Numbered from the stretch's first letter, positions 9,902 to 59,562 are shown. The stretch: 64,000 nt of DNA from Methylococcaceae bacterium (GCA_013141155.1 JABFRM010000145.1:6042-70041); one strand, 5' to 3'. Notes: generated by a model from the sequence alone, not told the origin. Program-made: numbers and translations.

Positions 9902-10487
9902 TTTATTTCCTTATTTTGAGTAATGCGTTAACGTTGAATAACGAATTACAGTGTGTAAAATTAAATAATCTGTAATACAGGCTCTCATACAATAAAGCAG
10001 TCCTATTTAACAATTGAACCGCTATTGATGATTTTATTAATGCAATTTACATACCATTTAAAATTATTACAAAAAAATCAATGCAACAGCCAAAGCATCG
10101 CTCACCTAACATCTCGTCTAAAAATAAACAGAGTATTTAATTATTCACTGCATGGGTAGCGCTGCACTCTAACAGAATTAAAAACTCAGGAGTATGCACA
10201 AAACGAATTTGACAATTTGAAATGACAACTCCACCGGACTTGAGAGATTAATTTATAAATATTCAACTACCCACTGATTTTTTAAGGTAATAGGTATATT
10301 TTCATAACTAAGACAGTCTGTGACCAAACTTTGATGAAACGCTTTTGAGATTAAAACGTTAATAGTGTCGCCAATTAATTGGCAACCTGGTGCGTCACTT
10401 CATTGACAAACGATATTGAATCTGCGGTTACGAGAACTAACACTCGCCTCCATTTTAATGCCTGCTCTTAGCACATGTTCAAAATCG

Positions 10488-11165
10488 TCATTCAATGCAC
10501 TTAAGCAAATGGAAAGCTTCCGCATAGTCAACGCCAGCCGTTGCACCTCTATAGGTTGCCAATGCCTCAATATTTCTAATACTTCTTGGAAAAGGATGTT
10601 CCGCTAATTCGGAAGCATAAATACTCATCAACTCAATTTTTCGCTTAAAGTACGGGCTAATATCAACAAAATAATTGGGATAAAAGATATTTTCCGGTAG
10701 AGCGGCTGCGAATTCCGTTTCTGAAAGACACTCATACATTAAGATTTTTTTAATAAAGGGATAGCGAAAGCTTTTGGTACAGGCCATAACGGCTTGAAAC
10801 AAAACGCGGTGATCAGAATGTGCATCCGAACGATTAAGCACAAAAATGACTTCAGGCTTAAACTCCAAAAAACAGTGGCTAATCTTGCCAATTAATTGAC
10901 TGGGCGCAATGGCATCCAATTGTGTCGTTGGAAAATCTAATTGATATACTTTTTGAAAAGGAACTTGCTTGGCGACCTCAGCTATTTCTTGTTGCCGACC
11001 TTCTACTCTGGCTTTCGTATATCCTGCTGATTCACTCATATTCGTGGCAATAAGCCAAGCAATTTCAGCACCTTGACCCGCATATTTTAATAGCGTGCCA
11101 CCACAACCCAATACTTCATCATCTGGGTGAGCGGCTATTACTATAATTTTTTGTGCCCTTAACAT
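10488..11165 (-). CDS. PIG-L/LmbE-family N-acetyl-sugar deacetylase
   Basis: The N-terminal motif is VIAAHPDDEVLGCGGTL, and HSDH follows later in the protein. It overlaps the stop of the upstream neuC. Confidence 0.85.
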   Translation of the reverse strand: MLRAQKIIVIAAHPDDEVLGCGGTLLKYAGQGAEIAWLIATNMSESAGYTKARVEGRQQEIAEVAKQVPFQKVYQLDFPTTQLDAIAPSQLIGKISHCFLEFKPEVIFVLNRSDAHSDHRVLFQAVMACTKSFRYPFIKKILMYECLSETEFAAALPENIFYPNYFVDISPYFKRKIELMSIYASELAEHPFPRSIRNIEALATYRGATAGVDYAEAFHLLKCIE

Positions 11166-12331
11166 AAGTTTCGTTTAACCAGATAAGTTGAATCCTTTGC
11201 ATTAATTTTTTCCAACGTATTAACAATGATTTCAGCCGCATCCCCATTGCTATAAGGTGATATTAATTTGCTTACTTCATTTCTATAATCAAGATTGAAA
11301 CATGCGTTTTCAACTGCATGAACAATCAATTCCTTATTATGTGCTACAAATTCAACATTGCCTGCTTGTAATCTACCTTGTTGGCGATTGCCGATATTCA
11401 CGACTGGAATTTTATAAGTGGGCGCTTCTAAAATTCCCATGCTGGAATTACCAACCAGCGCTTTAGTATGTCTTAATAAATTAATAAACGCTAAACGCGG
11501 TAAGGTTTTATTAAACTTAAAATTTGGATTGCTCTCAAATTTTTTAATCACATTTAAAATATCACAAGCACCAGGATCGGTGTTAGGGTAAGACGCAACA
11601 ATTTTGAAATGATGTTTGACGGCAAATGTATTCAACGCGTCAAGCGTAATATCCATCTGTTCAGCCGCGTTATCTAACTCACTGGACAATGGATGCTTTA
11701 CCAAAACAATATAATTACCGTCAGCAATGTCAAAATTTAAATAGCTAGATAATTCATTTAAATCAAGAGGGGGGGTATTAATAATATTTTGAAGTGCCGG
11801 ATTGCCGCTAAATATCACCCGAAAATCATCTTCGTGTAAATGTTCAACCAAATTATCGGCATACAGTTGGGTAGTAGCAAAATGTAGATGAGCCAGTTTG
11901 GAACAAGCAACTCTAACAGGATCATCGGTATTTCCAAATACGGGGTCACCACCACCGATATGGACAGTCAGAATATTCATATAATTACCGACAATACACG
12001 TCGCAATACTTTCTTCACGATCCCCAACCACCAATAAAAAATCTGGCTTGACCCTTTCTACCGTTTGCGAAAGTGCGTAAATCAACATACCCACCCCTTT
12101 ACTGCGTTGCGTTTCACGATTGGTATTAAATAATGAATCAATTTTATCTGCAATCTTAAAACCGTCTTCTTCAATTTTTTTGTAGGTCAGTCCATGAAAA
12201 TCAGAAAGATGTGCAGAAGAGATGACCACTTCAACTTCAAACATATTGCTTTTACGCAGTTTGTCTATAACCGGAAATAAAATATCGTATTCACTTCTAA
12301 TTCCCGTAATTGCCAATACTTTTTTTTTCAT
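11159..12331 (-). CDS. neuC: UDP-N-acetylglucosamine 2-epimerase (hydrolysing), NeuC family
   Basis: The N-terminus KVLAITGIRSEYDILFPVI plus ...LVVGDREE... and ...HIGGGD... are typical of the NeuC/epimerase_2 family. It lies in the operon with neuB and neuA. Confidence 0.85.
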   Translation of the reverse strand: MKKKVLAITGIRSEYDILFPVIDKLRKSNMFEVEVVISSAHLSDFHGLTYKKIEEDGFKIADKIDSLFNTNRETQRSKGVGMLIYALSQTVERVKPDFLLVVGDREESIATCIVGNYMNILTVHIGGGDPVFGNTDDPVRVACSKLAHLHFATTQLYADNLVEHLHEDDFRVIFSGNPALQNIINTPPLDLNELSSYLNFDIADGNYIVLVKHPLSSELDNAAEQMDITLDALNTFAVKHHFKIVASYPNTDPGACDILNVIKKFESNPNFKFNKTLPRLAFINLLRHTKALVGNSSMGILEAPTYKIPVVNIGNRQQGRLQAGNVEFVAHNKELIVHAVENACFNLDYRNEVSKLISPYSNGDAAEIIVNTLEKINAKDSTYLVKRNLC

Positions 12332-13041
12332 TACAATACGATGTATGCAATATTAGGCTCAAAATAAAATTTATTTATTTTTAAATGATTTAACGAAAAT
12401 TTTTGCTCAAATAACGCTTTTGTCTCACCTGGCCAAGAAGCATTATTTATTTCATCGAATGCAATAATCCCTCCTTTAGGTACCCGAGTTAAAAAATATT
12501 CTAACGCAGCTTTTGTTGGTTCATATAAATCAAAGTCTAAAAATAATAAAGATATAATTAAATGCTGATTTTTTTCCATGAATTCTGGAATGGTTTTAGT
12601 TGCATCACCTTTTATTAATTCTACTTTATTAAATTGATTCAAAAATCTATTATCATCGAACTCAGTAATGGCATCATTAATATATTCAAAAGAGGATTTA
12701 CCTGCCGAAAACCCCCCAGTGACCAAATGATTATTTTCTTGAATATCGGTAAAATCGCTTTTATCCACTGATGGAAAACCTTCAAATGTATCAAAACCAT
12801 ACACTTTTCGGTGAATTGCCATAGGTTCTAGCCCAGCTGACATTTTAGCCCAAGCCATTAACCCACCGCCGTGATGAACGCCGCATTCAATTATGCTTCC
12901 CTTAACATCTAGGGTTTGCTTAAAAAGCTCGTAACGGGCAAGAAAACGCGTAAGACTTTGGCGTCTTACATATAATTCGAAATTATCCAGCTTACTTTGG
13001 ATAGAATAATGTGTATGTAAATTAAAATTATTTTCTTTCAT
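12331..13041 (-). CDS. TylF/MycF-like class I SAM-dependent (sugar O-)methyltransferase
   Basis: The SAM pocket reads GSIIECGVHHGGGL, followed by GFDTFEGFP and then LLFLDFDLYEPT (metal-binding DxD-like), as in macrocin-O-methyltransferase-type enzymes. Confidence 0.7.
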   Translation of the reverse strand: MKENNFNLHTHYSIQSKLDNFELYVRRQSLTRFLARYELFKQTLDVKGSIIECGVHHGGGLMAWAKMSAGLEPMAIHRKVYGFDTFEGFPSVDKSDFTDIQENNHLVTGGFSAGKSSFEYINDAITEFDDNRFLNQFNKVELIKGDATKTIPEFMEKNQHLIISLLFLDFDLYEPTKAALEYFLTRVPKGGIIAFDEINNASWPGETKALFEQKFSLNHLKINKFYFEPNIAYIVL

Positions 13042-13044
13042 TAT

Positions 13045-13722
13045 CTATTTCTCTAAAACAATATGAAAACGTGAATCAATGAGAACATTTTTTTCATTAA
13101 ATTCTTTTTTTGTATTTAACCATTTAATTTTCCAATTCGTTTCACTCAATAACTCTTTAACTCTCGCTATATCGTAGTAACTTTGGATCGTTCCTTTTTC
13201 ATGTAACGTGTCTACCACCTGATCATCAGCAATATTATTATTTACCTCAGCGGTAATTAAGGTTATAAAAAACAATTGACTGGTAGTTCGGTCAAACTCT
13301 TGAATTAATTTTTTTGCAACTTCAAAATTCATTGAATCCAAAACACTATCACATATCCCAAAGTCAAAAAAATCATCATCAAAATGTAATATTGGGTCTG
13401 AAATAGCTGTAAAGCTTATCTTTAACGATTCTTCAAATTTATTTTTCAATTCATTGGATGTCTGTATCGCGCCAGGTGAAAGATCTAAACCAAAAGCATT
13501 AAATCCAAATTCACTTAACAATATAGTTTGTCGTCCGACACCACAACCATAATCTAAAGCATTACCCGTTTTTATTTCAATTTTTTCAACATAAGTATCT
13601 ACCGAATTTTTTTTTCGTACAAATCTGTTCAGGAATTTAACCGTTTCATCTTTTGGATAATAAATATGATTCTCTCCGCGAGCGTAACTTTCATCCCAAA
13701 ATTTAGTTTTTAAATCAATCAT
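13045..13722 (-). CDS. Class I SAM-dependent methyltransferase
   Basis: Motif I is ALDYGCGVGRQT, followed by an acidic loop (FGLDLS). The gene is very AT-rich. Confidence 0.75.
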   Translation of the reverse strand: MIDLKTKFWDESYARGENHIYYPKDETVKFLNRFVRKKNSVDTYVEKIEIKTGNALDYGCGVGRQTILLSEFGFNAFGLDLSPGAIQTSNELKNKFEESLKISFTAISDPILHFDDDFFDFGICDSVLDSMNFEVAKKLIQEFDRTTSQLFFITLITAEVNNNIADDQVVDTLHEKGTIQSYYDIARVKELLSETNWKIKWLNTKKEFNEKNVLIDSRFHIVLEK

Positions 13723-13751
13723 AATATAATGCTTATTTAATGTTAGTTATT

Positions 13752-13961
13752 CCTGATTAGCAAGATGCTTCAGCCAGCGTCAAAAAAACCGTCATTCCGG
13801 CAAGGAAGCCGGAAGCCGGAATCCAGAGCCAGGGACGGTAAAATCCAGATACATTGCGCTCGATTTAAGCCCTATGCCAAATCATACATTCACATCCGTG
13901 TGACTGGATGCTGGCATCCCCCCAGTATGACGGTGTTGGCTGAAGCATCTTTATAATCAGG
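13752..13961. mobile_element. 210-bp MITE-like element inserted between two operon genes
   Basis: It has 27-bp terminal inverted repeats: CCTGATTAGCAAGATGCTTCAGCCAGC (13752-13778) and the reverse complement of 13935-13961 (CCTGATTATAAAGATGCTTCAGCCAAC), matching at 24/27. The interior is noticeably more GC-rich than the flanking AT-rich genes and contains CGTCATTCCGGC...GCCGGAAT hairpin modules. No transposase is present. Confidence 0.65.
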
Positions 13962-13969
13962 TGGTTATT

Positions 13970-14932
13970 TTAATTAGTATTTTTATAGATTTCAGAATAA
14001 TATCGAAACATAGAAACAGTATCGAAAGAACCCTCATCAATATTTAATTTAACAGGTTTTGATTTCAACAAATTTATAAAATTTTGTTTTAACGATGCAC
14101 AAGCCCGCAGTGATAAAATACTTCCACCACCAATTCTAGGATTTAAATCCGTAAGGAAGTAGCATCCTTTTTGTTCAATGAACTGAATACAATTAAATCC
14201 GCGAAAAGAAATTATGTTGCATATTTCTTTTACCAAATTAATTAACTCACTATTTTTAACAGTGGTTGCAGCCACTGCAATACCAGAATCAATTACCTCT
14301 CTTTTTCTAGGAACACAATTTAATAATTGCCCATCAAAATCACATAAAAAATCAACTGTAAACTCTTGTCCACGCAATTCTTCCTGAATAATATTTTTTT
14401 CATTCAACAGCGAATTATTCTGACTAAGATTATTTTTATTTAACAATTGAATACCCATGCTTCCGCGACCATTACGAGGCTTTAAAATCCAGTTTTTATT
14501 TCCACATACTGTTGCATTAAACTCATTCGCTAAATAAAATTCACCACAATTAAGTTTTTCGTTAACATTTTTATATAGTAAATATTTATCGGTTATAATT
14601 TTCAAAGCATTTAAATTAGGATGAAAAATATTACAGCTCAGCTTAGCAAATTCATGCTCATACTTAGCTAAATATAAAATTTCATTTTCAGGGCCTGAAA
14701 GTATACTTGACACCCTATTTTTCTTAATAATTTCTGAATATTTTTTTATTAAAAAGTCTTCATTTTCAACATTAGCTTTTGGCACAATATAGGCGGTATC
14801 AACGACATTTGCTCCGGCACTCATTAATGATAAGTCTGTACCAATAACCTGAATATTATTATCTTGCAATAACTGAATTATACCAACCGAAGGTAATGAT
14901 GAAATTGCTGAACGAATAACAGTATAATTCAT
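13970..14932 (-). CDS. ATP-grasp domain ligase
   Basis: The size and pattern fit an ATP-grasp protein (KPRNGRGSMGI, EELRGQEFTVDF, LTDLNPRIGGG). It overlaps the neuB stop by 4 nt. Confidence 0.7.
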   Translation of the reverse strand: MNYTVIRSAISSLPSVGIIQLLQDNNIQVIGTDLSLMSAGANVVDTAYIVPKANVENEDFLIKKYSEIIKKNRVSSILSGPENEILYLAKYEHEFAKLSCNIFHPNLNALKIITDKYLLYKNVNEKLNCGEFYLANEFNATVCGNKNWILKPRNGRGSMGIQLLNKNNLSQNNSLLNEKNIIQEELRGQEFTVDFLCDFDGQLLNCVPRKREVIDSGIAVAATTVKNSELINLVKEICNIISFRGFNCIQFIEQKGCYFLTDLNPRIGGGSILSLRACASLKQNFINLLKSKPVKLNIDEGSFDTVSMFRYYSEIYKNTN

Positions 14933-16092
14933 AATAAAACCAAATCTGTCATGTATATGACTTGCATTTTTTCAATAGAAGTATTAATAACCTTACCTTT
15001 AAGTTTTTCCCACTCCATCGGACTTATTCCATTACCAGGCCGACACGCAAAAACATTATCTTCACTTAATACATTACCCTTTTTAATAGCTGTTTTAGCA
15101 TGTAGGCTTTTGCGGCCTACTGACATATTAACCCGCTCACTGTTACTGGGCTGTTTAATACCATTACCTAATAACAGCTCTGTTGATCTAATTTGCTGCA
15201 CGTATTGTTTTAATTCATCCGGCTCTAATGAAGCCTTATGGTCAGGCCCCGGTAAATTTTTATCCAACGTAAAATGCTTTTCAATAACCACCGCGCCCAT
15301 TGCCACTGCGGCAATTGAAACATCCAATCCTGCGGTGTGGTCGCTATAGCCCACTGCGACATCGAACGCTTTTTGAATGGTTAGCATGGCACTTAAGTTA
15401 ACGTCTTCAATAGGTGACGGATACTGGCTATTACAGTGCAAAATCACCAGGTCGGCTTTTTTAACGCCAAAATCAAGAAGTACTTTTACCGCATTGCGAA
15501 TATCTTCCATATCGCTCATGCCGGTTGACAAGACAATCGGTAGACCTTTTTGGGCAATATTGCGTAAATAAAAATAATTGGTGATTTCTCCCGAAGGCAC
15601 TTTAAAAAAATCAATGCCCAGTTTAAATAAAAACGCAATACTTTCTTCATCAAAAGCAGTCGATAGAAATTTAATATGCTTACTTTCTGCATAGGCTTTT
15701 AGCACATAATGATCTTCATATTTAAGCTCCAGGCGCTTTAACATTGCAAACTGCGTTTCTTCACCACCCGTGTTTTCTTTTTGGTATGCGGCCTGCTCAG
15801 CGGTTTGGGTTACTAATTGTTCCGTTTTATAGGTTTGAAATTTCACATAATCAGCGCCCGCTTCAGCCGCAACATCAATGAGTTTCTTTGCCATTTCAAT
15901 GTCACCATTATGGTTAACGCCGGCTTCCGCTATAAACATCACTTTTCTCTTGGACACTATTAATCTCACTATATTGTCAATTTGGGCCATAAAGGCAGGA
16001 ATGCCACTCGGTATATTCACCACCCACTCAGCGTTTCTTAAATCCCCGTGCGTGTAATGTTGGTCAATTGCCAAACGGTACATAGAACTCAC
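14929..16092 (-). CDS. neuB: N-acetylneuraminate (nonulosonate) synthase
   Basis: The motif FIAEAGVNHNGDIEMAKKLIDVAAEAGADYVKFQT is present, together with a C-terminal SAF/antifreeze-like domain. The true start may be an internal Met (about 15990 or later). Confidence 0.9.
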   Translation of the reverse strand: MSSMYRLAIDQHYTHGDLRNAEWVVNIPSGIPAFMAQIDNIVRLIVSKRKVMFIAEAGVNHNGDIEMAKKLIDVAAEAGADYVKFQTYKTEQLVTQTAEQAAYQKENTGGEETQFAMLKRLELKYEDHYVLKAYAESKHIKFLSTAFDEESIAFLFKLGIDFFKVPSGEITNYFYLRNIAQKGLPIVLSTGMSDMEDIRNAVKVLLDFGVKKADLVILHCNSQYPSPIEDVNLSAMLTIQKAFDVAVGYSDHTAGLDVSIAAVAMGAVVIEKHFTLDKNLPGPDHKASLEPDELKQYVQQIRSTELLLGNGIKQPSNSERVNMSVGRKSLHAKTAIKKGNVLSEDNVFACRPGNGISPMEWEKLKGKVINTSIEKMQVIYMTDLVLL

Positions 16093-16126
16093 ACGGGGCA
16101 GGTCATTACCCTTGTCGTCATTTGCT

Positions 16127-16828
16127 TTATCCTACTAAATAAGCCTGCACAAAAGCTTCAGCCATTGCCCAATCCGTTAAGGTATCAATATCCAGGCTCA
16201 TCATGGCATCCATAACCAACGGCAAGGTTTTTTCTGCATAGACAGATTTTTTTTCCAATATCACTGCGGTTTTACATAAATACAGTGCGCCATTGGGGGT
16301 CAATAATGGCGCTATATCTTGTCTGCGCGTTTGGGTCACTTTGTCGGACAATGGCCTTAAAAAACCCGCTTCGAGATTAAACAGCGTGGTTAAATCCCGA
16401 TGAATTTCTTTACACCCAATGACGCCATCGGCTTGAGAGGTTTGCATCATCTCTAATGCTTGGTTAAGCATACCTGGTGCGCGAAAGGGCGAAGTCGGTT
16501 GTAATAACATCACTTGCTCGGGCAGATAGTGATATTTTTGTTCAAACCACTGCAAGGCATGTTCAGCTACCGCAAGGGTTGAGGTGCTATCTTCTGCATA
16601 AATTGGCGGTCGAATAAAGGGTACTGCTAAGCCTGTCGCTAGCCCTACTTCGGCATAACGATTGGAGTCTGTCGATAATATCGCCAAACAATTATCCAGC
16701 TTAGCGGTCTTTATTGCCTCTGCTGTCCAAGCGATTAAAGGCTTACCGCCCAATAATTTAATGTTTTTATCGGGAATGCCTTTTGAACCACTGCGGGCAG
16801 GAATAATAATGAAGGTTTTGATCAACAT
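16127..16828 (-). CDS. neuA: Acylneuraminate (nonulosonate) cytidylyltransferase
   Basis: The N-terminal motif IIPARSGSKGIPDKNIKLLGGKPLIAWT is characteristic of CMP-NeuAc synthetase-family enzymes. Confidence 0.85.
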   Translation of the reverse strand: MLIKTFIIIPARSGSKGIPDKNIKLLGGKPLIAWTAEAIKTAKLDNCLAILSTDSNRYAEVGLATGLAVPFIRPPIYAEDSTSTLAVAEHALQWFEQKYHYLPEQVMLLQPTSPFRAPGMLNQALEMMQTSQADGVIGCKEIHRDLTTLFNLEAGFLRPLSDKVTQTRRQDIAPLLTPNGALYLCKTAVILEKKSVYAEKTLPLVMDAMMSLDIDTLTDWAMAEAFVQAYLVG

Positions 16829-16946
16829 ATAAACGTCTATGAATGTCTACATCATTAGTGACTTGGATGGAATTTACACAATCTGTATTCCATTACTTGG
16901 TATTTCAGAAGCTTCATATAGGCTACCTGTGCGTATTTAGGTTTTT

Positions 16947-17879
16947 TTAAAGGTAATCAAATAACGACAACTTCTGCACTTTTGAAAAAGATTGCTGCGC
17001 AGCTTGCAACGTCGTTTCCTGTTGATTAAAACGACTCATGGCTTCGGCGTAATCCAAATCTTGAATATTAGATAAGCTGGATTTCATATCGACCATATAT
17101 TTTTCATTTTGATTTTGCTGTACATCGAGCGCATTCAAACGCGCACCTGTTTTTGCTTGGGTAGCCGTTATCGTTTGCAAGCCGGAATCCAGATCATTTA
17201 ACACTTTAGTCAACACCGCCTGATCAGTCGCTGGATTAGGATTGGCTAACGCTTCTCTAAAGGTACTCAAGGCATTGAAAATATTTTGTGCGTTGCCATT
17301 CACATCCTTAAAGGCAAATACATCAGAACCAGGATCACTGTCAGCAATTTGACGATCAGCCGACACCTGCAAAGATCTTTGCTCGGTACCGCCTTTATAA
17401 TCATACGTTTTAGGCGCTGTTGCGGGAATCGCTTCTTTAAAAGCAGCGGTTTTAGTCTGATAGCCAGAAAAAATATACTCGCCGCTCGCATTAGTGGTAT
17501 TGGCAAGTCCCTGCATATTGCCTAAAATTTGATCTATTTCATGCCCTATCGCCTGCTTATCCGTATCCTGTAAAGTGCCACTGTTTAAACTTTGTACCGC
17601 TAAATCACGCGCTCGTTGCAGAACATCCACCGCATTACTGAGTGTTGAATCTTCCAAGGTATTGTTCGTTTTCGCCGCATTAATATTTTCCTGATATTGC
17701 GTTGCTTGTGCCAACGTACTATCAAGGCTCAAAGCTTTAGCCGCTGCAACCGGATCATCAGCGGGCGTTAAGTTTTTTAAAGCACTGGCTAACTGCAATT
17801 CTGTTTTCACCATTTTTGCCTGCTGATTTTGCATGGCTTTAACGTTTAATTGCTGCGACCACGCTGTTGATATGCGCAT
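16947..17879 (-). CDS. flgL: Flagellar hook-associated protein 3 (hook-filament junction protein)
   Basis: The flagellin-like N-terminus is MRISTAWSQQLNVKAMQNQQ and the C-terminus is ...TLQAAQQSFSKVQKLSLFDYL. The track ORF extends to a GTG at 17933, but the MRIST Met (19th codon) is the likely start. My own nucleotide count around it may be off by 1. Confidence 0.85.
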   Translation of the reverse strand: MRISTAWSQQLNVKAMQNQQAKMVKTELQLASALKNLTPADDPVAAAKALSLDSTLAQATQYQENINAAKTNNTLEDSTLSNAVDVLQRARDLAVQSLNSGTLQDTDKQAIGHEIDQILGNMQGLANTTNASGEYIFSGYQTKTAAFKEAIPATAPKTYDYKGGTEQRSLQVSADRQIADSDPGSDVFAFKDVNGNAQNIFNALSTFREALANPNPATDQAVLTKVLNDLDSGLQTITATQAKTGARLNALDVQQNQNEKYMVDMKSSLSNIQDLDYAEAMSRFNQQETTLQAAQQSFSKVQKLSLFDYL

Positions 17880-18080
17880 AACCTTTTCCTCTTTTAATCT
17901 TAATGTGGATTGACTAAGCTCTCCGACGCTCACGACTACCGGATGAACCTAGAAAGTATTGTATAAAAACCTGTAGCCGTTTTTGCTATAAAGCACTTCA
18001 CATAAGTGTAGGCAATTTCCAGGATTTTGCACGATAAGGCACTCGACTATTATGGTTTTTTATGCTTTATCGCTCTTTAT

Positions 18081-31745: not shown

Positions 31746-33974
31746 ATGAATTTAACAATAACACTAAGCAATACAATTCTGTTTTATGTAAAAAAATACT
31801 GGTTTGAAAATGTTATCTTTATCTTATTGCTATTTTATACGCTATTTTATTTTACCCCTTCCTCTTACGGAAAAGCCCTTGAAATGCTGGGCATCCCTAA
31901 CACTGGCTTAATTTTTGGCACACCACAAGCCGCTCGATCTGATGAATGGGCAGTATGGACCCCCTATTTACAAGCGTTAGTCAACAACCATTTTCAGCGT
32001 TTTAACGCGTATTCAATCTACCATGAAGACTTTCGTAATTTTAACGCCTTACCTATCTACGACTGGGCATTATTTTTTAAACCACAATTTTGGTCTTTTT
32101 TAATCGCCGAACCCGCACGGGCATTTTCTTTTCATCATGGTTTTTTAATTGCGGCGTTTATCATTGGCTGGAAACAATTAATAGAAAAAATAATGCTGCC
32201 TTATCAATACGCGTCACCTGGCATTGCTATTGGTTTTTCATTATTGTTGTTTTTTTCTGGATTTGTCCAAACGTTTTGGACAACAGTCGGGCCGATTATT
32301 GCGATTTTTCCTTGGTTGCTGCTGGTTTTATTAGCCTGGAAACAGCACTCAATCACTTATTATGCTTTGCTAATTTATGTTACAACCGTCTGGTTACTTT
32401 CACATACTTATCCGCCTTTAGTTATCTCTTGTATATATATCGGTTTATTTATTTTAGGCGCATTTAAAACTGACTTCTTTTCAAATTTTAAACGGTGTTT
32501 TTTTAGCTTATTTGCTTGCTTGGCCGCCGTTGCGATCGTGGTTTATTATGATAAGGATGTCATCATAAAGATGATGTCCACTGTTTACCCTGGAAAACGG
32601 CAATCACTGGGAGGAGAAGGCAATTTCTATATGTGGCTAAGCACGATTATTCCTTATATCACGCATTCAACCAGTAGGACAGTCACAATAGTTAACAGCT
32701 TAAACATTTGCGAAGCAACCGCCGTTTCCAGTTTATTACCATTAATGAGCCTGTGTTTTGCGGATTTTAAAAGCATCAAGGACTTGTTTAGAAAAGAAAT
32801 CGTTATCTTAAGCTGTGCATTAGTTTTCTTTACCGCCTGGTGGTTATTTCCAGTGCCACAGTTGATAGGTGAATTATTGCTGTTGACCAAAGTTCCTGCA
32901 CACCGTTTAGTTTTTTCACTGGGATTGGCGATTAATATTAAGGCATTATTTATTCTAGTCGAATATGGTGTCAGATTAAATTTTAAACGACTCCTGATCT
33001 TTACATTTTTGCTACTCTTTTGTTGGTGCTTACCCGCCATTTTCTCTCATTATAATTATTTTTCGAAATTTGATATTTCAGATGGCGCCGCACCCTTTGA
33101 AAAATCTACTTTAGAGCTAATTGTAATACCCTTGATAACCACGTTATTAATTTCATATCGTTTCAAATGGCTAAATAATACCGTAACAGTACCGGTTATC
33201 GTATTTACGGCAATGCTGCCGAATATATTGTATTTCTCAACTTTTAATCCAATACAATCCGCAAAATCTATTTTTACGGCAAAAAACAGCGAAATTGTTG
33301 CGGCTTTAAAAAAAATGCAGCATGAAGATAGTCGTGACTGGCTGGTCTTTCCGGTAATACCGGGCGCGGTGCTCAATGGCTTAGGATTAAGATCGTTTTC
33401 TCATGTTTTAATTCAACCACAACTCGACTTTTTTAGGACATTATTTCCCGAAATACCCGCCAACGAATTTAATCACATATTTAATCGCTATGCGCATATA
33501 GAATTATATGACATCCCAAAACCAGGCTCACCTTATTCAGATAGAATAAGCATTCCCATTAAAAAAATAAGGGAAAAAAGCAGCAACCAAGAAATCAACA
33601 TTGGTTTTTCTGACTGTAATATTAAAGTAGCCCGCAATGGTTATTTGGAAGCAGTGACTCTCGATAACAAAAAACTCTATCTAAGTGGGTGGATTACCAA
33701 TAATGATCATCGGTATTTAACCAACCTTAAAAGCTCTAAATTGATCGCCTATCACGAAAGGCCTCGACTAGATATAGTGGGCGTACAAAAAGATGCACCA
33801 TTAAAAGACTTGTTAGTCGCTGGAATTGGTTTTGAAATAATGCTTTCCGAAGACGATATAAAAACCATTCGCAATGAAGGTTTTTGTTTATTTAATGATA
33901 ATAAACAATATGGCATTACCGAGTTATTTCATTTTTCAACTGCTGATATTGAAGCTTTTATGCGAAAAAAATAA
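31746..33974 (+). CDS. Large polytopic membrane protein, putative GT-C-type periplasmic glycosyltransferase
   Basis: About 14 hydrophobic helices span the first ~520 aa, followed by a soluble ~220-aa C-terminal domain. An acidic motif (ARSDEWAVW) sits in the first extracytoplasmic loop, as in GT-C enzymes. The gene is AT-rich and lies beside a divergently arranged GT2 plus small flippase pair. I recognise no specific family. Confidence 0.5.
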   Translation: MNLTITLSNTILFYVKKYWFENVIFILLLFYTLFYFTPSSYGKALEMLGIPNTGLIFGTPQAARSDEWAVWTPYLQALVNNHFQRFNAYSIYHEDFRNFNALPIYDWALFFKPQFWSFLIAEPARAFSFHHGFLIAAFIIGWKQLIEKIMLPYQYASPGIAIGFSLLLFFSGFVQTFWTTVGPIIAIFPWLLLVLLAWKQHSITYYALLIYVTTVWLLSHTYPPLVISCIYIGLFILGAFKTDFFSNFKRCFFSLFACLAAVAIVVYYDKDVIIKMMSTVYPGKRQSLGGEGNFYMWLSTIIPYITHSTSRTVTIVNSLNICEATAVSSLLPLMSLCFADFKSIKDLFRKEIVILSCALVFFTAWWLFPVPQLIGELLLLTKVPAHRLVFSLGLAINIKALFILVEYGVRLNFKRLLIFTFLLLFCWCLPAIFSHYNYFSKFDISDGAAPFEKSTLELIVIPLITTLLISYRFKWLNNTVTVPVIVFTAMLPNILYFSTFNPIQSAKSIFTAKNSEIVAALKKMQHEDSRDWLVFPVIPGAVLNGLGLRSFSHVLIQPQLDFFRTLFPEIPANEFNHIFNRYAHIELYDIPKPGSPYSDRISIPIKKIREKSSNQEINIGFSDCNIKVARNGYLEAVTLDNKKLYLSGWITNNDHRYLTNLKSSKLIAYHERPRLDIVGVQKDAPLKDLLVAGIGFEIMLSEDDIKTIRNEGFCLFNDNKQYGITELFHFSTADIEAFMRKK

Positions 33975-34471: not shown

Positions 34472-35479
34472 TTAGTCCTGTTTATTTCGCAACTGCAACA
34501 CTTGATGCTTGACAGAGCGGCGCAACACATGCAGCGGTCTCCGCGGAATAGAGGCTATATCATAGCCGAGGAACGCCAATATCAATTGTAATCCAATTAG
34601 AATAGGCAACGCTGCCAACATCACCGTACCAGCGGGTGTAGCGACACCCGCTTTCAATGAAGACATCCAATGAAACAGACCAAAACAACTGCCGGACATC
34701 ATGAACACGATACCCAAGGGTAGCTCTATGGAAGCCAAGGATAAATCCCGCAAATAATAATTGTAAAAAATACGCTTTAAAAAATTACGCACATGTTTAA
34801 AAAGGAATTCCCCAATAATTTTAGAAATTTTTAGATTACTTACCTCCTCACCATATTTGGCATCCATTGGAATATCTATAACCACGGCACGCAACGTATT
34901 AAGTCGAAACAACATATCTGTTTCAAAAAAATAACGGCAGCTAATCTTTTCAAAGGGAAGCTGTCGAGCAACATCTGCATGTATCGCCGTATACCCATTG
35001 GTTGGGTCGAACAAATCCCAATACCCAGAGGACAATTTCGTCATAAACGACAGTATAGCGTTACCAAATAGGCGAATTTTGGGCATGGCTCGAATCGCTT
35101 CCAAATAAAAAAAACGATTTCCCTTGGTGTAATCTGCTTCGCCAGCGAGAATTGGAGCGACGAAATCAAAAATTAAAGCCGGATCCATCTGCCCATCACC
35201 ATCAACTTTTACGATAACATCCGCACCCTGCGCAATAGCCGCACGATAGCCCGCCATTACCGCCCCACCGACGCCAAGATTTACGGGATTGCGAATCACT
35301 CTTACCCTAGGATCCTTAACATTTAACTCAACAAACGTGCCGGTTTGCTCAGGACAGCAATCATCAACAACAAAAATATTGGCCACTTCGGCGCCAACGC
35401 CGTCCAAGACACCCAGTATTTGCCTTTTGACACAAAAACAAGGTATGACCACAGCAACTATTGGAACATTATTTTGCAT
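34472..35479 (-). CDS. GT2-family polyprenyl-phosphate glycosyltransferase (ArnC/GtrB/DPM1-like)
   Basis: It has the VAVVIPCF start, the FVVDDCCPEQTG (DxD region) motif, VKVDGDGQMDP and two C-terminal TM helices, typical of Und-P sugar transferases. Confidence 0.85.
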   Translation of the reverse strand: MQNNVPIVAVVIPCFCVKRQILGVLDGVGAEVANIFVVDDCCPEQTGTFVELNVKDPRVRVIRNPVNLGVGGAVMAGYRAAIAQGADVIVKVDGDGQMDPALIFDFVAPILAGEADYTKGNRFFYLEAIRAMPKIRLFGNAILSFMTKLSSGYWDLFDPTNGYTAIHADVARQLPFEKISCRYFFETDMLFRLNTLRAVVIDIPMDAKYGEEVSNLKISKIIGEFLFKHVRNFLKRIFYNYYLRDLSLASIELPLGIVFMMSGSCFGLFHWMSSLKAGVATPAGTVMLAALPILIGLQLILAFLGYDIASIPRRPLHVLRRSVKHQVLQLRNKQD

Positions 35480-54167: not shown

Positions 54168-54224
54168 GTTTTTTTTAAAAAAAGAAGGTTACACAGATAT
54201 ATAAAATTCAACGTATTGTACGTC

Positions 54225-56456
54225 TTAAAATTTCGATTTAGCTTTTAAAACCTCAAGCAAATAGCGACGTTTCGGTTCTTCATAAGCAAGTTTATCTGGA
54301 CAGCTAAGTGATTCTTCCACTTTGATTTTAAGCTTATTATATTTTTCTTGCGAATGTTCATTATTCCCTAGGTCAAATATATAGATACAAAAGGCAATAG
54401 TCACTTCAACGTAATACATCTGCTGCTCAGGGTTAGGGTAATATAATTTAGATAATTTCATTACATATTTTTTAACGATGCTTTCATCATAATATTCTTT
54501 ATTTTCAATAAGTTTAATGAATATAAATAATGACCCTATTAACGCATAAATCTGCCGTTTTAAATGTATTGAAATAGGTGTTTTATCAGCTGCATACCCT
54601 TCTAATTTTTCTGCTAACTGAAGCAAGGTATTCCATGTATCCTCTAAACTGGGTATTTCTGGTAATTCCTCATCAACACAAATGGGCTTAAAGTACCCAT
54701 AGTTATAGTAAACAACAAATTGATGGCACCGCTCCACCTCAAAACGAATTGCCTCTAAAGTATTAGATTCATCATTATGCTGCTGTCGCCAAAGAACATT
54801 TGCTTGCTCTAGCTTATCAAAAGCCTCTTTAAATTGTTCGCACTTCGTATAGTGATGCCGAAGTGCAACCGCATAAAGATAGTACGCTTCAGGCGCAATA
54901 GTGGCATCTTCCTCAGCATAGTCTGCCGCACTGTTACAAAAGCTTTTAACTTGCTCCCAAGCACTAGCCTCGGCCGCAATCAATGCACAGATCAAATACA
55001 TTTTCCCTTTAGACAGCGGCTCTCCCGTTTGTAACAAACTAAAGATAGCGGCATTATTTCCTTTATCTAATTCCTGACGAATAGCTTCAAATAACCCATC
55101 GGGTTGCCCGTTTCTATAATACGACACTAAAGGCACGGGTAAACGATGCCAACCTTGCAAACGTTCTCCTCTATGCAATTTCAATGCCTCTAAGACGTGC
55201 ATATTTGTCATGCCAATGCTTAAATAGACCCTTTCAAAATTAGCATAGGTTGATTCCCATTTTGCTTTTAATGACGCTTGAATTTTAACTAGTAATTCTT
55301 CCGATTCGCCAAGAATTTTTTGTAACCAAAGTTTAAGCTTCTCTTCTTCATTTTGAATACTTTGATTTAATGCGGCAATTTTAAAAAAATCATTGCGCAT
55401 CGCCGTGATTTTTTCATCTACATGCCCACAACATTGATAACTTGCCCCTCCTCCCTTAACGATCGCTTCTAAATTGGCAATATACATGACTTCGTTGCCA
55501 TCAGCATTCAGTAAAAGTGGCATAAAAAACTTGTCCAACATCTTGCTATAAGCATCCAGTTCTTTTTGTAAAACACTTTTATCATCTAAATAATTAAACA
55601 ACTTGGTGAAAGAACGATATATGCGCGGATGACGTATCGGAACTTCTGCCTTTATATTGGATGATTCAGCCGCAATAACTTTATGGATGCCTTTATCGCC
55701 GGTTATAAAATACAATTTTTGTTTACTTCCCGCTGCTTGTAATGCGCGATTAACTAAAGCAACATAAGCCAAAGTTTTGGCATCATCAAGAATTCTATGT
55801 AAAGGCCTGTCTGGACGAACTTTGCGCAGCTTTTCATACCACGGTTTACTCTCAAGATATAAAGCGGCTAGTGATGGTTTATCATGAAACCACGCTTGGC
55901 TTTGAATATCAGCAAGCTTGTTACTGTCTACAAGCTCACCAATCCGCTGTATTTCTGTATCGGAATCAGTAGCCGATGCGTCATCTTGCACCAAATAACG
56001 ACACAGCGTGTCGCAGTGCCTTAACATGCCCGCGACTAATTCCTCTATATCCAGTGTTGTTTGGTAGGCTTTAAACAACGCTTCTAGCTCAGCTAATTGA
56101 CCCTGAGCTACTTTATGACCCTCGTGATGATCCTTCCATATTGCTTCAAAAATATAAGTAAATTCAGTATAAAGTGTCGGCAATGTTAGTAAAGGCTCAT
56201 TGGCTAAATGCTTGAAGATATACTCCGCTAAACTGTAAGCGGAAAATTTTAAGTCTTTCAGCTTTTCATCGTCAAAAATCTGAGCATATTCCCGCTTACC
56301 TTCAGGATTTGAATAAAGGATGATGACGTTATTATCAACCGCATAAAAAATATGCCCACCCGCTTTTTGATACGCCAAATCATCCAAGACAATTTTTAAA
56401 TCCAATCTAATTTGGGCGAGATTTTTATAATACTTTTGTAGTTTTTTAGTAGACAT
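54225..56456 (-). CDS. Hypothetical 743-aa cytoplasmic protein with PIN-like acidic motifs in the N-terminal ~270 aa and a helical-repeat (TPR-like) C-terminal half
   Basis: It is a long AT-rich ORF and the last gene of a 4-ORF operon. Motifs are IFYAVDNNVIILY (D41), RILDDAKTLAYVALV (D224/225) and LYFITGDKGIHKV (D254). There is no signal peptide, TM helix or P-loop. Confidence 0.6.
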   Translation of the reverse strand: MSTKKLQKYYKNLAQIRLDLKIVLDDLAYQKAGGHIFYAVDNNVIILYSNPEGKREYAQIFDDEKLKDLKFSAYSLAEYIFKHLANEPLLTLPTLYTEFTYIFEAIWKDHHEGHKVAQGQLAELEALFKAYQTTLDIEELVAGMLRHCDTLCRYLVQDDASATDSDTEIQRIGELVDSNKLADIQSQAWFHDKPSLAALYLESKPWYEKLRKVRPDRPLHRILDDAKTLAYVALVNRALQAAGSKQKLYFITGDKGIHKVIAAESSNIKAEVPIRHPRIYRSFTKLFNYLDDKSVLQKELDAYSKMLDKFFMPLLLNADGNEVMYIANLEAIVKGGGASYQCCGHVDEKITAMRNDFFKIAALNQSIQNEEEKLKLWLQKILGESEELLVKIQASLKAKWESTYANFERVYLSIGMTNMHVLEALKLHRGERLQGWHRLPVPLVSYYRNGQPDGLFEAIRQELDKGNNAAIFSLLQTGEPLSKGKMYLICALIAAEASAWEQVKSFCNSAADYAEEDATIAPEAYYLYAVALRHHYTKCEQFKEAFDKLEQANVLWRQQHNDESNTLEAIRFEVERCHQFVVYYNYGYFKPICVDEELPEIPSLEDTWNTLLQLAEKLEGYAADKTPISIHLKRQIYALIGSLFIFIKLIENKEYYDESIVKKYVMKLSKLYYPNPEQQMYYVEVTIAFCIYIFDLGNNEHSQEKYNKLKIKVEESLSCPDKLAYEEPKRRYLLEVLKAKSKF

Positions 56457-56466
56457 GATTCAAAAT

Positions 56467-56940
56467 TCACGCATAAATAACTATTTGATCATTAGGTGGA
56501 TTTTGATGCCTTTCATTAATCGGCTTAAAAACCCTGTCAATCTTATCAAGTAACTCAATCAGCGTATCTTTTTCTTTTTGAGAAAAATCCTCTATTCGTT
56601 TATTTTCAAAATATTCATTTAACCACCAATTAAGCTGATAATTATCTCCCCATTTATTTTTTGAAATCTTTGATTTTTGCTGACCACAACAAATATAATC
56701 GCTTTCCTTGCCTCGCATAAATGTAATCGCCGATTCCTTATCAAAAAGCATTCTAAGCAACCACCGCTCATTATCAATCTCATTAGGCTTTAAAAGTACT
56801 ATATCTGGAATGTATAAATCCGGCAAATACCGCACCAAATTCTCCAAATCCATTTTGTCAACTAACCCTAATGTCAACGAACGAACATAAAGCTGATCTT
56901 CTTTTTCCAGTGCTAAAAAATAACTTCTGCTGCTCAGCAT
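56467..56940 (-). CDS. Hypothetical protein (157 aa as called, possibly the C-terminal part of a frameshifted or fused gene with 56858..57493)
   Basis: This ORF overlaps the upstream ORF by 83 nt in a different frame. An alternative ATG at 56853 lies 4 nt after the upstream stop. I recognise no motifs. Confidence 0.5.
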   Translation of the reverse strand: MLSSRSYFLALEKEDQLYVRSLTLGLVDKMDLENLVRYLPDLYIPDIVLLKPNEIDNERWLLRMLFDKESAITFMRGKESDYICCGQQKSKISKNKWGDNYQLNWWLNEYFENKRIEDFSQKEKDTLIELLDKIDRVFKPINERHQNPPNDQIVIYA

Positions 56941-57493
56941 ATTCAGATAATTTTTTTGGATGTACTTTAAGTAAATTTAAAAAAATTATTGGAATATCCG
57001 TTTTATCAAAGTAATCTGGTTTTTTAAGCAATTGCTCAAATTCTTGAGTTACTAAAGGCTCTTCCATCCAACTGGCTAAGATATTAATAACATAGGCTCG
57101 AGATCGTAAAGCTTCTTTAGATTTAGCCACTTTCAGGAATCCCTTTAACCGAAAAAATATAGGCTGTAGTGCATCTGCAACCTTAAGGGTTTTTGCCAAC
57201 CAAACCATGTTACGCAAAACGCCTTGCCATTCATCGACATCGCGGCAACGGGTAATGCCATGCGCCAACCCTTTTCTAAACCTTGTTTGTGTCGGTGCAT
57301 CGAGCTTTTCATAAACCGCTGCCAATTGCACGCCAATATCTTCATGATGCGTTAACAATAACCCAATAGGCGTAAATGGAATGTTTTTAGGCGGTGATTC
57401 CTCCCAACAACGCAATCCTTCTAACAACCAATCGGCTAAATCATCTGCTGACATTTTGTTAAGTGTGCCCAAATATTCGTTTGGTATTTTCAT
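56858..57493 (-). CDS. Hypothetical all-helical protein (211 aa as called)
   Basis: Its ATG lies 5 nt after the upstream stop. The last ~20 residues (STGKRRSALCSFVDIRVS) look out-of-frame, whereas the overlapping frame reads naturally. Confidence 0.55.
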   Translation of the reverse strand: MKIPNEYLGTLNKMSADDLADWLLEGLRCWEESPPKNIPFTPIGLLLTHHEDIGVQLAAVYEKLDAPTQTRFRKGLAHGITRCRDVDEWQGVLRNMVWLAKTLKVADALQPIFFRLKGFLKVAKSKEALRSRAYVINILASWMEEPLVTQEFEQLLKKPDYFDKTDIPIIFLNLLKVHPKKLSEYAEQQKLFFSTGKRRSALCSFVDIRVS

Positions 57494-57498
57494 AACTG

Positions 57499-58422
57499 TT
57501 AAATGTTATCGTTAAGCCAAGTAACGAATTCAGACCGCAGATCAAATGTGCCAACGAATTCATTCTGCATATTCAATATAGCAGCTTCATCGTTAGGATC
57601 AACCCATTCAGCATGTTCTGTGGTCAAACCAATCGCTTTTAATTGCCCATTTGCTTTATAGAGTGGAACTTGCCTCGCAAAAAGCTCAGACTCACCTGTT
57701 CTTATACCCTCTTTATACGACCGTTGTAAATACACAGTACTTCCCCATCCCTCATTATCTGCTGGATTGTTATGTGCTTTAAAACGCTGATGTGCTTCGG
57801 CTTCAATAAAAGTCGGAGTTGCTTTATTATTAGGGTGAATTGCTGTTGCCAAAAAACAAAGCTCAAATAAGGCAACATTACTATTAAAATGAACCAGCCC
57901 CAATATATCACGCACTTGATTTGCTAGATTTGCGGGCTTAGCATGTCTTAGTTTTTCAATCCAATCAGAAGGAGTAATCCAAAATTGTCCGTCGTTATAG
58001 TCTAAATACCCATAAGTCCCGTCATTTAAAATTTTGGGATGTTCGTCAAATGCAGCGGCTACTTTAGTAAAAAAATGTTCCTCATATTCTGCACTATTAC
58101 TAACTTCAATGCCCATTTGATTCAATTCGATTATATTCAAATTTTTATGTAAAATTTCCCAACGAATAATGGTACTTACCTTATCTGGCATTTGCGGCTT
58201 AGCTTTATGTTGAAAGCGATATTTAACTTCTTTATCGGCAATGTTATGAATAAGATTAATAATTTCTTCTACATAAATTGGAGCATAGCTAATATAAGCA
58301 GCTTTCCATGCTTTTAAAAAACTAATCAATAGATCACGTTCAATATGTTCATGATCATAGGCGCATTGAATATTTGCCAAGACAATTCGCCCTAAAGGCT
58401 CTTTATTTAAAGTTGAAAACAT
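57499..58422 (-). CDS. Hypothetical 307-aa cytoplasmic protein, first gene of the unknown operon
   Basis: It is an uninterrupted ORF with no TM helix or signal peptide. I find no recognisable catalytic motif (checked for P-loop, HxK PLD, HNH, HExxH). Confidence 0.6.
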   Translation of the reverse strand: MFSTLNKEPLGRIVLANIQCAYDHEHIERDLLISFLKAWKAAYISYAPIYVEEIINLIHNIADKEVKYRFQHKAKPQMPDKVSTIIRWEILHKNLNIIELNQMGIEVSNSAEYEEHFFTKVAAAFDEHPKILNDGTYGYLDYNDGQFWITPSDWIEKLRHAKPANLANQVRDILGLVHFNSNVALFELCFLATAIHPNNKATPTFIEAEAHQRFKAHNNPADNEGWGSTVYLQRSYKEGIRTGESELFARQVPLYKANGQLKAIGLTTEHAEWVDPNDEAAILNMQNEFVGTFDLRSEFVTWLNDNI

Positions 58423-58602
58423 CCACCCCCCGATTCATTGTTTACAGCGCCTTAAATCAGTTCAGTATTTCAATTGCAGTAAACTATTTGCAAAGCGTTA
58501 CTTTTTTGAGTCATTCTTGGAAAAACCAGTGCCGCATAGTATCAGACACAGGTGGCAAGGTCTAACACTTGTTAACAGCATATTCCCTGAACGACTGATG
58601 CC

Positions 58603-58636
58603 GGTGAATGATAAAATGAGCGATTTATCATTCACC
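58603..58636 (+). promoter_or_regulatory. Perfect 13-bp inverted repeat (operator or 5'-UTR hairpin) abutting the AEC transporter start
   Basis: GGTGAATGATAAA (58603-58615), N8, then TTTATCATTCACC (58624-58636). It ends 12 nt before ATG 58648. Confidence 0.4.
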
Positions 58637-58647
58637 TCCCAGCATCA

Positions 58648-59562
58648 ATGACTTCAACCCTGCTACAAATGTCCGTAATCATCGCCTGTGGTGCGATATG
58701 GCGATTTTTTACCCCATTAGGCATAAGCGCCCAACAAACCCGGCAAGTACTGACCACGGTGGTTTATTATTTGTTGCTACCCGCCCTGGTGCTTGAGGTT
58801 TTATGGCATGCAGATATAGGCATCCACTCCCTGTATTACACCGGCTTAGGCATTGCCTGCATTGTTGTGGCAGGCTTGTGTAGCTGGTTACTTGGGCGAT
58901 TATTTAAGTTTCAGGCCAAGCAGATGGGGGCAGTGCTGTTGGCGGCGGCATTTGCCAATGTCACTTTTTTAGGCTTACCGGTACTGGAGCAACTGTTCGG
59001 CAGTTGGGCAAGATCGGTTGCTATCCAACTGGATTTGTTTGCAGTGGCGCCTTTTTTGTATACGTTTGGCATCTTGGTGGCGCGGCATTTTGGCCGGGAT
59101 GGATCGGTAAAACCGAAATCCGTACTCTTATTTTTAAATACGCCCCCATTTTGGGCGGCATTTCTGGCGGTCATCCTCAATTTAAATAACATCTCTACCC
59201 CTCTTTGGCTTACGGGCATATTGCAAAAATTAGCCGCAGCCGTGGTGCCGCTGATGTTACTATCACTGGGCTTGGCGTTAAGCTGGCAGACCCTTAAAAT
59301 ACGGCAATTACCCTATATATTAGTGGTTAGTGGCATTAAACTCTTGTTAATGCCCTTGGTTGCCTTAACGCTGGTCACGCATCTGGATTTACCCACACCA
59401 TTTAAAGCGGCGGCGATCATGGATTTAGCCATGCCCAGCATGTTGATGGGCGTAGTCTTGTGTGATCGTTACCATCTGGATAGTAGCCTATATGCCATGC
59501 TGGTCACTGTAACCACCGCCTTAAGTTTAATCACCTTACCTTTTTGGTACGCCTTATTATGA
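58648..59562 (+). CDS. AEC (auxin efflux carrier)-family transporter
   Basis: It has about 10 TM helices and the typical two-repeat AEC architecture, with LLPALVL and FANVTFLGLPV motifs. Confidence 0.85.
   Translation: MTSTLLQMSVIIACGAIWRFFTPLGISAQQTRQVLTTVVYYLLLPALVLEVLWHADIGIHSLYYTGLGIACIVVAGLCSWLLGRLFKFQAKQMGAVLLAAAFANVTFLGLPVLEQLFGSWARSVAIQLDLFAVAPFLYTFGILVARHFGRDGSVKPKSVLLFLNTPPFWAAFLAVILNLNNISTPLWLTGILQKLAAAVVPLMLLSLGLALSWQTLKIRQLPYILVVSGIKLLLMPLVALTLVTHLDLPTPFKAAAIMDLAMPSMLMGVVLCDRYHLDSSLYAMLVTVTTALSLITLPFWYALL

Follow-up and report, generated by a model that had tools for sequence, protein, structure and literature searches.

A low-GC three-gene cassette inserted beside pyrF in a Methylococcaceae genome: a possible nuclease-plus-TPR conflict system, probably broken in this copy

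Introduction

Proteins of the TPR-GreA/B-C-PIN (TGP) type have been predicted to act in conflicts, and for one of them, Agp, protection of E. coli from phage T5 was shown (bioRxiv 10.1101/2024.11.07.622273). Our literature search on the combination of PIN and TPR domains found only this TGP/Agp work. Here we describe a block of genes that invites comparison with these proteins. It lies in a stretch of 64,000 nucleotides (nt) from a Methylococcaceae bacterium (GCA_013141155.1 JABFRM010000145.1:6042-70041), hereafter the window, which comes from a single contig of a metagenome-assembled genome. The block (locus tags HOP02_08415-08430) is placed between pyrF and a transporter gene, and its genes are called A, BC and D below. 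The block is a horizontally acquired, probably broken copy of a three-gene cassette, and in our estimate the chances are about even that this cassette encodes a conflict-type nuclease-plus-TPR system.

Results

A block of foreign composition

A first-pass annotation of this DNA had described the block as four AT-rich, compositionally foreign open reading frames (ORFs; here A to D) on one strand, without transmembrane helices. The coordinates were confirmed (Table 1): A and B are 5 nt apart, B and C overlap by 83 nt, C and D are separated by 10 nt, and 57 nt remain between the end of D and the start of pyrF (54167). On the other side of the cassette, a divergent AEC-type transporter gene starts at 58648. 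The guanine-plus-cytosine (GC) content of the block is 36.6%, compared with 44.0% in the remaining window and 47.6% in pyrF; counted per 500 nt it ranges from 0.32 to 0.42 within the block and from 0.44 to 0.49 outside. At third codon positions (GC3) the values are 25-32% in the block, 45% in pyrF and 54% in the transporter gene. We conclude that the block is compositionally foreign, as had been claimed. A Kyte-Doolittle scan likewise agreed with the absence of transmembrane helices, no 19-residue segment of the ORFs having a mean of 1.6 or more.

Gene A is preceded by a strong Shine-Dalgarno-like sequence, GGGGGGTGG. The promoter of the cassette presumably lies in the leader upstream of A (Table 1), where a promoter scan gave sites no more numerous than chance; no RNA element and no promoter or terminator signal exceeded chance either.

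Three genes rather than four

What did not stand is the number of genes. In every intact homologous locus examined, the middle of the operon is a single ORF, BC, and the intact relatives (two close D relatives and a locus reached via BC) have operons encoding 307, 329-346 and 752-757 amino acids (aa). Residues 1 to ~184 of B align to the N-terminus of these intact BC proteins (L001, L002 and L003; 329-346 aa), the last ~27 residues of B are an out-of-frame read-through, and C aligns with the remainder. With a profile hidden Markov model (HMM) of BC, B matched positions 1-194 and C positions 188-350. DNA alignment located a 2-nt deletion between them: the window reads 'GAGCA--GCAGAAG' where L002 has AAGCAATGCAGAAG and L001 has GACATGCCGGAATG; the deletion is not in a homopolymer run. 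What had looked like an 83-nt overlap is thus the scar of a frameshift, and no Shine-Dalgarno sequence was found in the 25 nt upstream of C. These alignments show that the 211-aa and 157-aa ORFs are two parts of one gene of ~340 aa. Programmed frameshifting between B and C is unlikely, since all intact homologues examined have one BC ORF; as the site itself is a 2-nt deletion, this candidate was ruled out. The window copy is thus probably impaired, unless the deletion is an assembly error. As for annotation, the four 'hypothetical proteins' of the assembly correspond to three genes, one of them disrupted.

Insertion at the transporter-pyrF junction

We compared the pyrF loci of 80 Methylococcaceae species (PyrF identity 82-89%), the neighbours being located by tblastn. 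The order conserved in these relatives consists of the transporter and CinA genes, read away from pyrF, and, in the opposite direction, pyrF followed by a DsbD-like gene and a gene for a sigma-54 activator. Where both were found, the starts of the transporter gene and pyrF are 99-650 nt apart; in the window they are separated by 4,480 nt. None of A, B, C and D was found beside pyrF in any of the 80 species. Because the junction is short and cassette-free in these species, we conclude that the cassette is an insertion into a conserved housekeeping junction, in line with what the first-pass annotation had proposed; the genes are neither universally conserved at this locus nor core-like in composition.

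Two segments are unique to the window: the ~157 nt that precede A and the last 57 nt in front of pyrF. By blastn, the window spacer shares with the relatives' spacers just positions 58580-58617, in addition to the transporter coding region. This segment, 31-68 nt upstream of the transporter start, is kept in several relatives (~94% over 16 nt; 76% over 38 nt) and could be an original promoter or operator left in place when the cassette inserted. The native upstream region of pyrF is displaced by the cassette. No terminator-like structure was found between the end of D and pyrF (54168-54224), and transcription from the cassette may now run on into pyrF. Flanking direct repeats, tRNA genes and an integrase were looked for as scars of the insertion, and none was found. 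Separately, a perfect 14-nt inverted repeat, TAAAACCTCAAGCA / TGCTTGAGGTTTTA, was observed at 54246-54259 (inside the 3' end of D) and 58790-58803 (inside the transporter gene); it roughly brackets the cassette, with a chance expectation of ~0.05 in 5 kb.

The A-BC-D order recurs in several phyla

Only two other close relatives of D were recovered in a search of 5.8 billion protein clusters. The four close loci, window included, each have different surroundings: L001 is next to genes for phosphatidylserine decarboxylase and a histidine kinase; L003-L008 and L093 are flanked by a FIST-PAS sensor gene on one side and by GGDEF plus cytochrome bd genes on the other; and L002 is a short contig with the same triad. 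The hosts of these loci (L001, L002, L003-L008 and L093) are Methylococcaceae or close relatives. Distant contexts were reached through eight distant members of the D family, the triad being present in Magnetococcus (L089/L090, L091/L092 and L098) and in L097, L107 and L111; L095/L096, also with the triad, came from a metagenome scan with a 10-sequence D alignment, which added 4 loci. Altogether, the order A (~310 aa), BC (~340 aa), D (~750 aa) recurs in at least 10 other genomic contexts. In three loci outside the building of the HMMs, the A and BC models gave E-values of 8e-36 and 2e-33 (L107), 2.5e-33 and 2.4e-33 (L111), and 1e-14 and 6.5e-21 (L095), respectively.

Among 1.84 billion representative proteins searched with a profile HMM of D, 380 were matched at E<=1e-3 and 159 at E<=1e-10. 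The matches listed are mostly 740-830 aa long, many aligning end to end, and all named members (from Cellulophaga, Magnetococcus and Thermoguttaceae assemblies) are called 'hypothetical protein'. Relatives of D are also present in Bacteroidota and Planctomycetota.

In the other loci BC and D overlap by 4-19 nt. The GC content of the cassette was below that of its flanks in all nine other loci measured (L001, L002, L003, L089, L091, L097, L098, L107 and L111), for instance 0.459 versus 0.648 in L097, 0.363 versus 0.52 in L098 and 0.407 versus 0.564 in another, the deficit reaching 19 points. This means that AT-richness travels with the cassette and is not specific to one host. We conclude that A-BC-D is a horizontally mobile, tightly coupled unit found in several phyla; the proposal that the genes form a co-occurring unit thus holds, with the same order in many unrelated contexts.

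The same annotation had likened the block to a defence system. The window cassette is not in a defence island, and only about half of the other loci have neighbours of mobile-element or defence type. L111 is surrounded by YoeB/Phd and UPF0175 toxin-antitoxin genes, a PLD-SNF2 helicase gene, phage-type helix-turn-helix regulators and a gene for a giant PNP_UDP-HD protein; L092 has TerB_C and BrxC/PglY-like genes, and L089 has transposases and a DUF3368/UPF0175 toxin-antitoxin pair.

Two further arrangements were seen. A decayed cassette is present in L099 (5993-9619) and L100 (4588-8178), two independent assemblies with the same fragmentation: A is broken into pieces of 117 and 65 aa, BC is truncated (263 aa) and D is intact. 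It adjoins a UPF0175/DUF3368 toxin-antitoxin pair. In L109 (6057-16876), a distant D homologue of 803 aa occurs without A and BC. It is preceded by genes for a 558-aa FAD/Rossmann-like protein and a 400-aa protein, protease-like by eye, and directly followed by a SLATT/DUF4231 gene, then by the RNA-repair genes RtcR, RtcB and RtcA. This swap of partners suggests that D is a modular core, and the context hints at RNA damage.

Three families outside the libraries searched

Pfam, NCBIfam, PADLOC and PHROGs gave no significant match for the four window ORFs, and in PADLOC-DB 2.0 there was none at E<=1. Remote members and consensus sequences were likewise left without a family assignment by Pfam, NCBIfam and PADLOC. 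With PDB sequence profiles, A, BC, D and the D core produced chance matches only. The proteins had been called unrecognisable, which these searches bear out, and no confident profile match to a housekeeping pathway was found. Judged from their sequences, A, BC and D are three protein families undescribed in every library searched.

Some absences concern specific domains. Neither D nor 61 of its relatives matched a Pfam family of GreA/B type; A, BC and D gave no Pfam or NCBIfam match to P-loop NTPases (NACHT, NB-ARC or AAA); and the upstream genes A (307 aa) and BC (~340 aa) gave no Pfam match to helix-turn-helix (HTH), ribbon-helix-helix or AbrB domains. As for VapC-type toxins, none of 1,235 ORFs of 90-260 aa, taken from 1.5 Mb of fetched loci, matched VapC or FitB, the SfVapC and FitB seed sequences serving as probes only. 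One VapC relative was obtained from IMG/VR, and a degenerate DNA scan for 'MxLDTNVLI' returned 5 loci with truncated ORFs only.

A is a soluble, acidic protein without any match in Pfam, NCBIfam, PADLOC, PHROGs or PDB. Its homologues stand upstream of BC and D in L001, L002, L003, L089, L091, L097, L098, L107, L095 and L111. Across 8 diverse homologues, the invariant residues are N17, S83, W148, R171, L174-G175-L176, P203-T204-F205-I206, A208, R213-F214, T229, G243 and E246, and the motifs 'VRDxLGL', 'PTFIEAxxHxRFKA', 'GWGxT' and 'GxPE' recur. BC is more variable than A and probably mostly helical; its PDB matches were non-significant and only to designed helical-repeat proteins.

Architecture and conservation of D

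An AlphaFold2 model of D built with 87 sequences (mf032b45d78a0) has a mean predicted local distance difference test score (pLDDT) of 89.6 and a predicted TM-score (pTM) of 0.87; with only 3 sequences the prediction was poor (pLDDT 55). The model divides the protein into a long N-terminal helix, an alpha/beta head, a helical linker and a repeat array (Table 1). Conservation was counted across the 87 family sequences.

PIN nucleases are metal-dependent, with a three-layer alpha/beta/alpha fold and a metal site made of four conserved acids at the C-terminal ends of strands and the N-termini of helices. In VapC-type PIN domains, one catalytic acid closes strand 1 ('DTN'), a second belongs to the helix that follows strand 2, a third opens the helix leading to strand 4, and a fourth, in a 'TxD', comes after strand 4. 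The secondary-structure order of the modelled D head fits that of the five-stranded parallel PIN fold (beta-alpha-alpha-beta-alpha-alpha-beta-alpha-(alpha)-beta-alpha-beta), with an extra helical insert, and conserved acids of D are placed at the same four topological positions. D41 follows strand 1 in the consensus 'YAVDTDV' and is kept in 87/87 sequences; E98, in the helix after strand 2, is E in 83 and D in the other 4. D225, which starts the helix before strand 4, is kept in 87/87 and N236 in 84/87, both within 'DAxxLARLEWIN'. After strand 4, in 'LITGD' (T252-G253-D254), position 252 is T or S in 87/87. Finally, after strand 5, the stretch R275-H-P277-R has R275 in 86 of the 87 sequences. 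Given this topology and residue placement, we lean slightly towards taking the head for a PIN-like nuclease.

The C-terminal half of D is predicted to be a TPR-like alpha-solenoid. In Foldseek, run with the whole D model against PDB and BFVD, the 50 matches listed were all TPR/SNAP-like and covered this half: TTC7B was matched with an E-value of 4e-3, and NprR, RapF, KLC1-TPR, Pex5 and Sec17 with probabilities of 0.97-1.0 and weak E-values. A few D-family members match the Pfam families TPR_2, TPR_12 and TPR_MalT. In this array W500, E523, R533, R571 and E575 are invariant or nearly so, and the solenoid is a putative ligand- or partner-binding sensor. The first-pass annotation had read D as a helical-repeat protein with a possible nuclease head; the repeat part is upheld by the model and by Foldseek, the head is indeed a conserved acidic alpha/beta domain that could be a nuclease, and neither the sequence searches nor the Foldseek matches listed confirmed it as one.

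In the window, A and D are full-length, and every invariant residue checked is kept except Y484, which is G here.

Table 1. Features of the cassette in the window (positions counted from the first nucleotide of the window)
Feature	Position	Strand	Residues or size	Remarks
Leader specific to the cassette	58423..58579	minus	~157 nt	upstream of A; unlike the transporter-pyrF spacers of relatives (blastn)
ORF A, gene A	58422..57499	minus	307 aa	first gene of the cassette
ORF B	57493..56858	minus	211 aa	assigned to gene BC, N-terminal part
ORF C	56940..56467	minus	157 aa	assigned to gene BC, C-terminal part
2-nt deletion splitting BC	56930..56931	minus	2 nt	from DNA alignment; position good to ~2 nt
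ORF D, gene D	56456..54225	minus	743 aa	conserved core of the cassette
D, long N-terminal helix			residues 3-31	model
D, alpha/beta head	55581..56360	minus	residues ~33-292	model; five short strands, helical insert ~119-177
D, helical linker			residues 293-429	model; all-helical
D, TPR-like alpha-solenoid	54234..55094	minus	residues ~455-741	model; regular helix pairs

Other low-GC islands in the window

Two other regions of low GC were noticed. On the minus strand, 10000-16900 (GC 0.33-0.37) has, by eye, genes for a NeuB-like nonulosonic-acid synthase (14929-16092), a CMP-sugar synthetase-like protein (16127-16828), a UDP-GlcNAc 2-epimerase-like protein (11159-12331), a PIG-L-type deacetylase, methyltransferases and an ATP-grasp protein, and adjoins a flgL-like gene (16947-17933); together these genes resemble a flagellin glycosylation cluster. 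On the plus strand, a gene of GC 0.36 (31746-33974) encodes a 742-aa protein with many membrane-spanning segments. It adjoins a gene for a small EamA/ArnE-like membrane protein and a GT2-type glycosyltransferase-like gene (34472-35479), and the region is probably an accessory glycan-modifying island.

Discussion

A working of the cassette can be proposed. The TPR-like solenoid of D, with its cluster of W, E, R, R and E residues, would bind a partner or an invader-derived ligand, and the N-terminal head (D41, E98 and D225, with D254) would then cut nucleic acid, most likely RNA. A, which might be an enzyme or a sensor (invariant R171, R213 and E246), and BC would bind D in a complex and regulate it; these roles of A and BC are guesses. 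The outcome would be growth arrest, abortive infection or the exclusion of foreign elements. We infer an anti-phage role. The conflict reading draws on the mobile or defence-type neighbours at about half of the other loci, on the swap of partners of D in L109, and on the precedent of TGP proteins such as Agp. A bolder version, which we put forward tentatively and as rather less than likely, is that A-BC-D founds a new scattered system against phages or mobile elements, in which D would represent a new class of TPR-gated PIN-like RNases, A and BC would sense infection or restrain D, and D could pair with other partners, as in L109.

Several results weigh against a conflict nuclease. The PIN assignment relies solely on secondary-structure order and residue placement, and the fourth acidic residue, D254, is kept in only 66 of the 87 sequences. 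Pfam gave no PIN or nuclease family for D, for 61 full-length members, for 20 cores trimmed of the insert or for consensus sequences, even at E<=10, and PDB sequence profiles gave none for D. When D was aligned by hhalign with profiles of VapC (3 sequences) and DUF3368 (2 sequences), the template profiles being weak, the probability was at most 1%. Among the Foldseek matches listed for the whole of D, all of TPR type, there was no nuclease. No PADLOC model was matched either, and the 61 D relatives produced six single-member hits (E 0.0016-0.0057) to six different models. Searches of phage, plasmid and IMG/VR collections yielded no D relative, and the neighbours are housekeeping genes in the window, L003, L097 and L098. 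Moreover, BC is frameshifted in the window and another copy (L099/L100) is decayed, so that function in this organism is doubtful.

These points bear on other explanations of the cassette. TPR proteins are most often scaffolds, and the triad could have an accessory role outside immunity, for instance as scaffold, chaperone or regulator in some niche-specific process, in which D is not a nuclease and its acidic N-terminal domain binds a metal or ligand without cleavage; the negative nuclease and PIN searches and the purely housekeeping neighbours at several loci fit this. Yet a scaffold would hardly account for D, E and D being invariant across phyla at precisely the PIN catalytic positions, a cassette that is compositionally foreign nearly everywhere and absent from close relatives is unlike a housekeeping complex, and in L109 D has other partners, near SLATT and RtcBA genes. 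We find this explanation improbable. Equally unlikely in our view is a selfish addiction module resembling toxin-antitoxin systems, with D as toxic nuclease and A and/or BC as neutralisers. Such a module would maintain itself through post-segregational killing, and it would lend stability to mobile islands rather than defend against phages. The patchy, horizontally transferred distribution, the tight coupling of the genes, the toxin-antitoxin genes that frequently adjoin the cassette and the decay of copies in some genomes all argue for it. However, there is no small DNA-binding antitoxin gene, A and BC being large and conserved, unlike classical antitoxins; the cassette was not found in plasmid collections; and the invariant pocket of the TPR sensor domain points to activation by a ligand.

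Whatever the function of the family, the window copy itself could be a dead remnant, inactivated by the BC frameshift and decaying as xenogeneic DNA, and here we see the case as evenly poised. The 2-nt deletion in a non-homopolymer context, the downstream half of BC without a ribosome-binding site and the L099/L100 lineage, in which a fragmented A and a truncated BC are found in two independent assemblies, all speak for a remnant. On the other hand, A and D are full-length with their checked invariant residues kept apart from Y484, an assembly error is possible in a metagenome-assembled genome read from a single contig, and the two polypeptides made from a split BC might still be functional.

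Conservation of the triad extends from Gammaproteobacteria to Magnetococcus, though its three proteins lie outside all the family libraries searched. If A-BC-D is a defence or conflict system, it would bring a new effector-plus-sensor design, a nuclease head with a TPR tail that has neither an NTPase nor a Gre domain, and two new partner families to the known repertoire of prokaryotic immunity. A new regulated RNase might be gained as well. Handles for experiments are at hand in the invariant residues, in a frameshift variant that occurs naturally and in intact orthologous cassettes, for example those of the L003-type Methylobacter and of Magnetococcus (L091).

Among described proteins, the TGP family, represented by Agp of the Bab/Agp system of E. 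coli ECOR25, likewise combines a TPR array and a PIN domain (putative in D) in one large protein. Like A-BC-D, TGP proteins are encoded with partner genes, are patchy in distribution and are predicted, and for Agp shown, to act in phage defence. In TGP, however, the TPR part is N-terminal and PIN C-terminal, whereas D has the reverse order (head 33-292, TPR-like part 455-741); TGP has a GreA/B-C domain between the two, where D has an all-helical linker and no detectable Gre or PIN Pfam domain. D is also smaller (~750 aa versus 1094 aa for Agp), without any detectable sequence relationship, and it is accompanied by two novel proteins of ~310 and ~340 aa instead of the Bell-domain amyloid partner of Agp. 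Since it has no Gre domain, a reversed domain order and no sequence link, D is not a member of TGP.

With VapC, the proposed layout of the head is the same: strand 1 is followed by an acid (consensus 'VDTDV', compare 'LDTNV') and strand 2 by a Glu, the helix before strand 4 starts with an Asp, and 'T-x-D' comes behind that strand. D differs by a profile probability of at most 1%, a helical insert of ~60 residues, a long N-terminal helix and 450 extra residues. VapBC modules are two-gene operons with a small upstream DNA-binding antitoxin; the cassette has no such gene, and it is therefore not a VapBC module. The best fold matches of the C-terminal half were RRNPP-type sensors (NprR, Rap phosphatases) and SNAP/Sec17-like solenoids, which resemble the D model in their right-handed solenoid of helical pairs and conserved concave surface. 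They differ in that E-values are 4e-3 or higher and TM-scores low, and in that D has no HTH or phosphatase domain and no sequence similarity to them. Lastly, STAND/Avs proteins, made of a nuclease effector, an NTPase and a TPR sensor, follow the same logic of repeat sensor plus nuclease in one polypeptide; as no P-loop or NTPase domain was detected in A, BC or D, D is not a STAND/Avs protein. At most, D would work in the manner of the TGP, VapBC and STAND systems, as a repeat sensor coupled to a nuclease.

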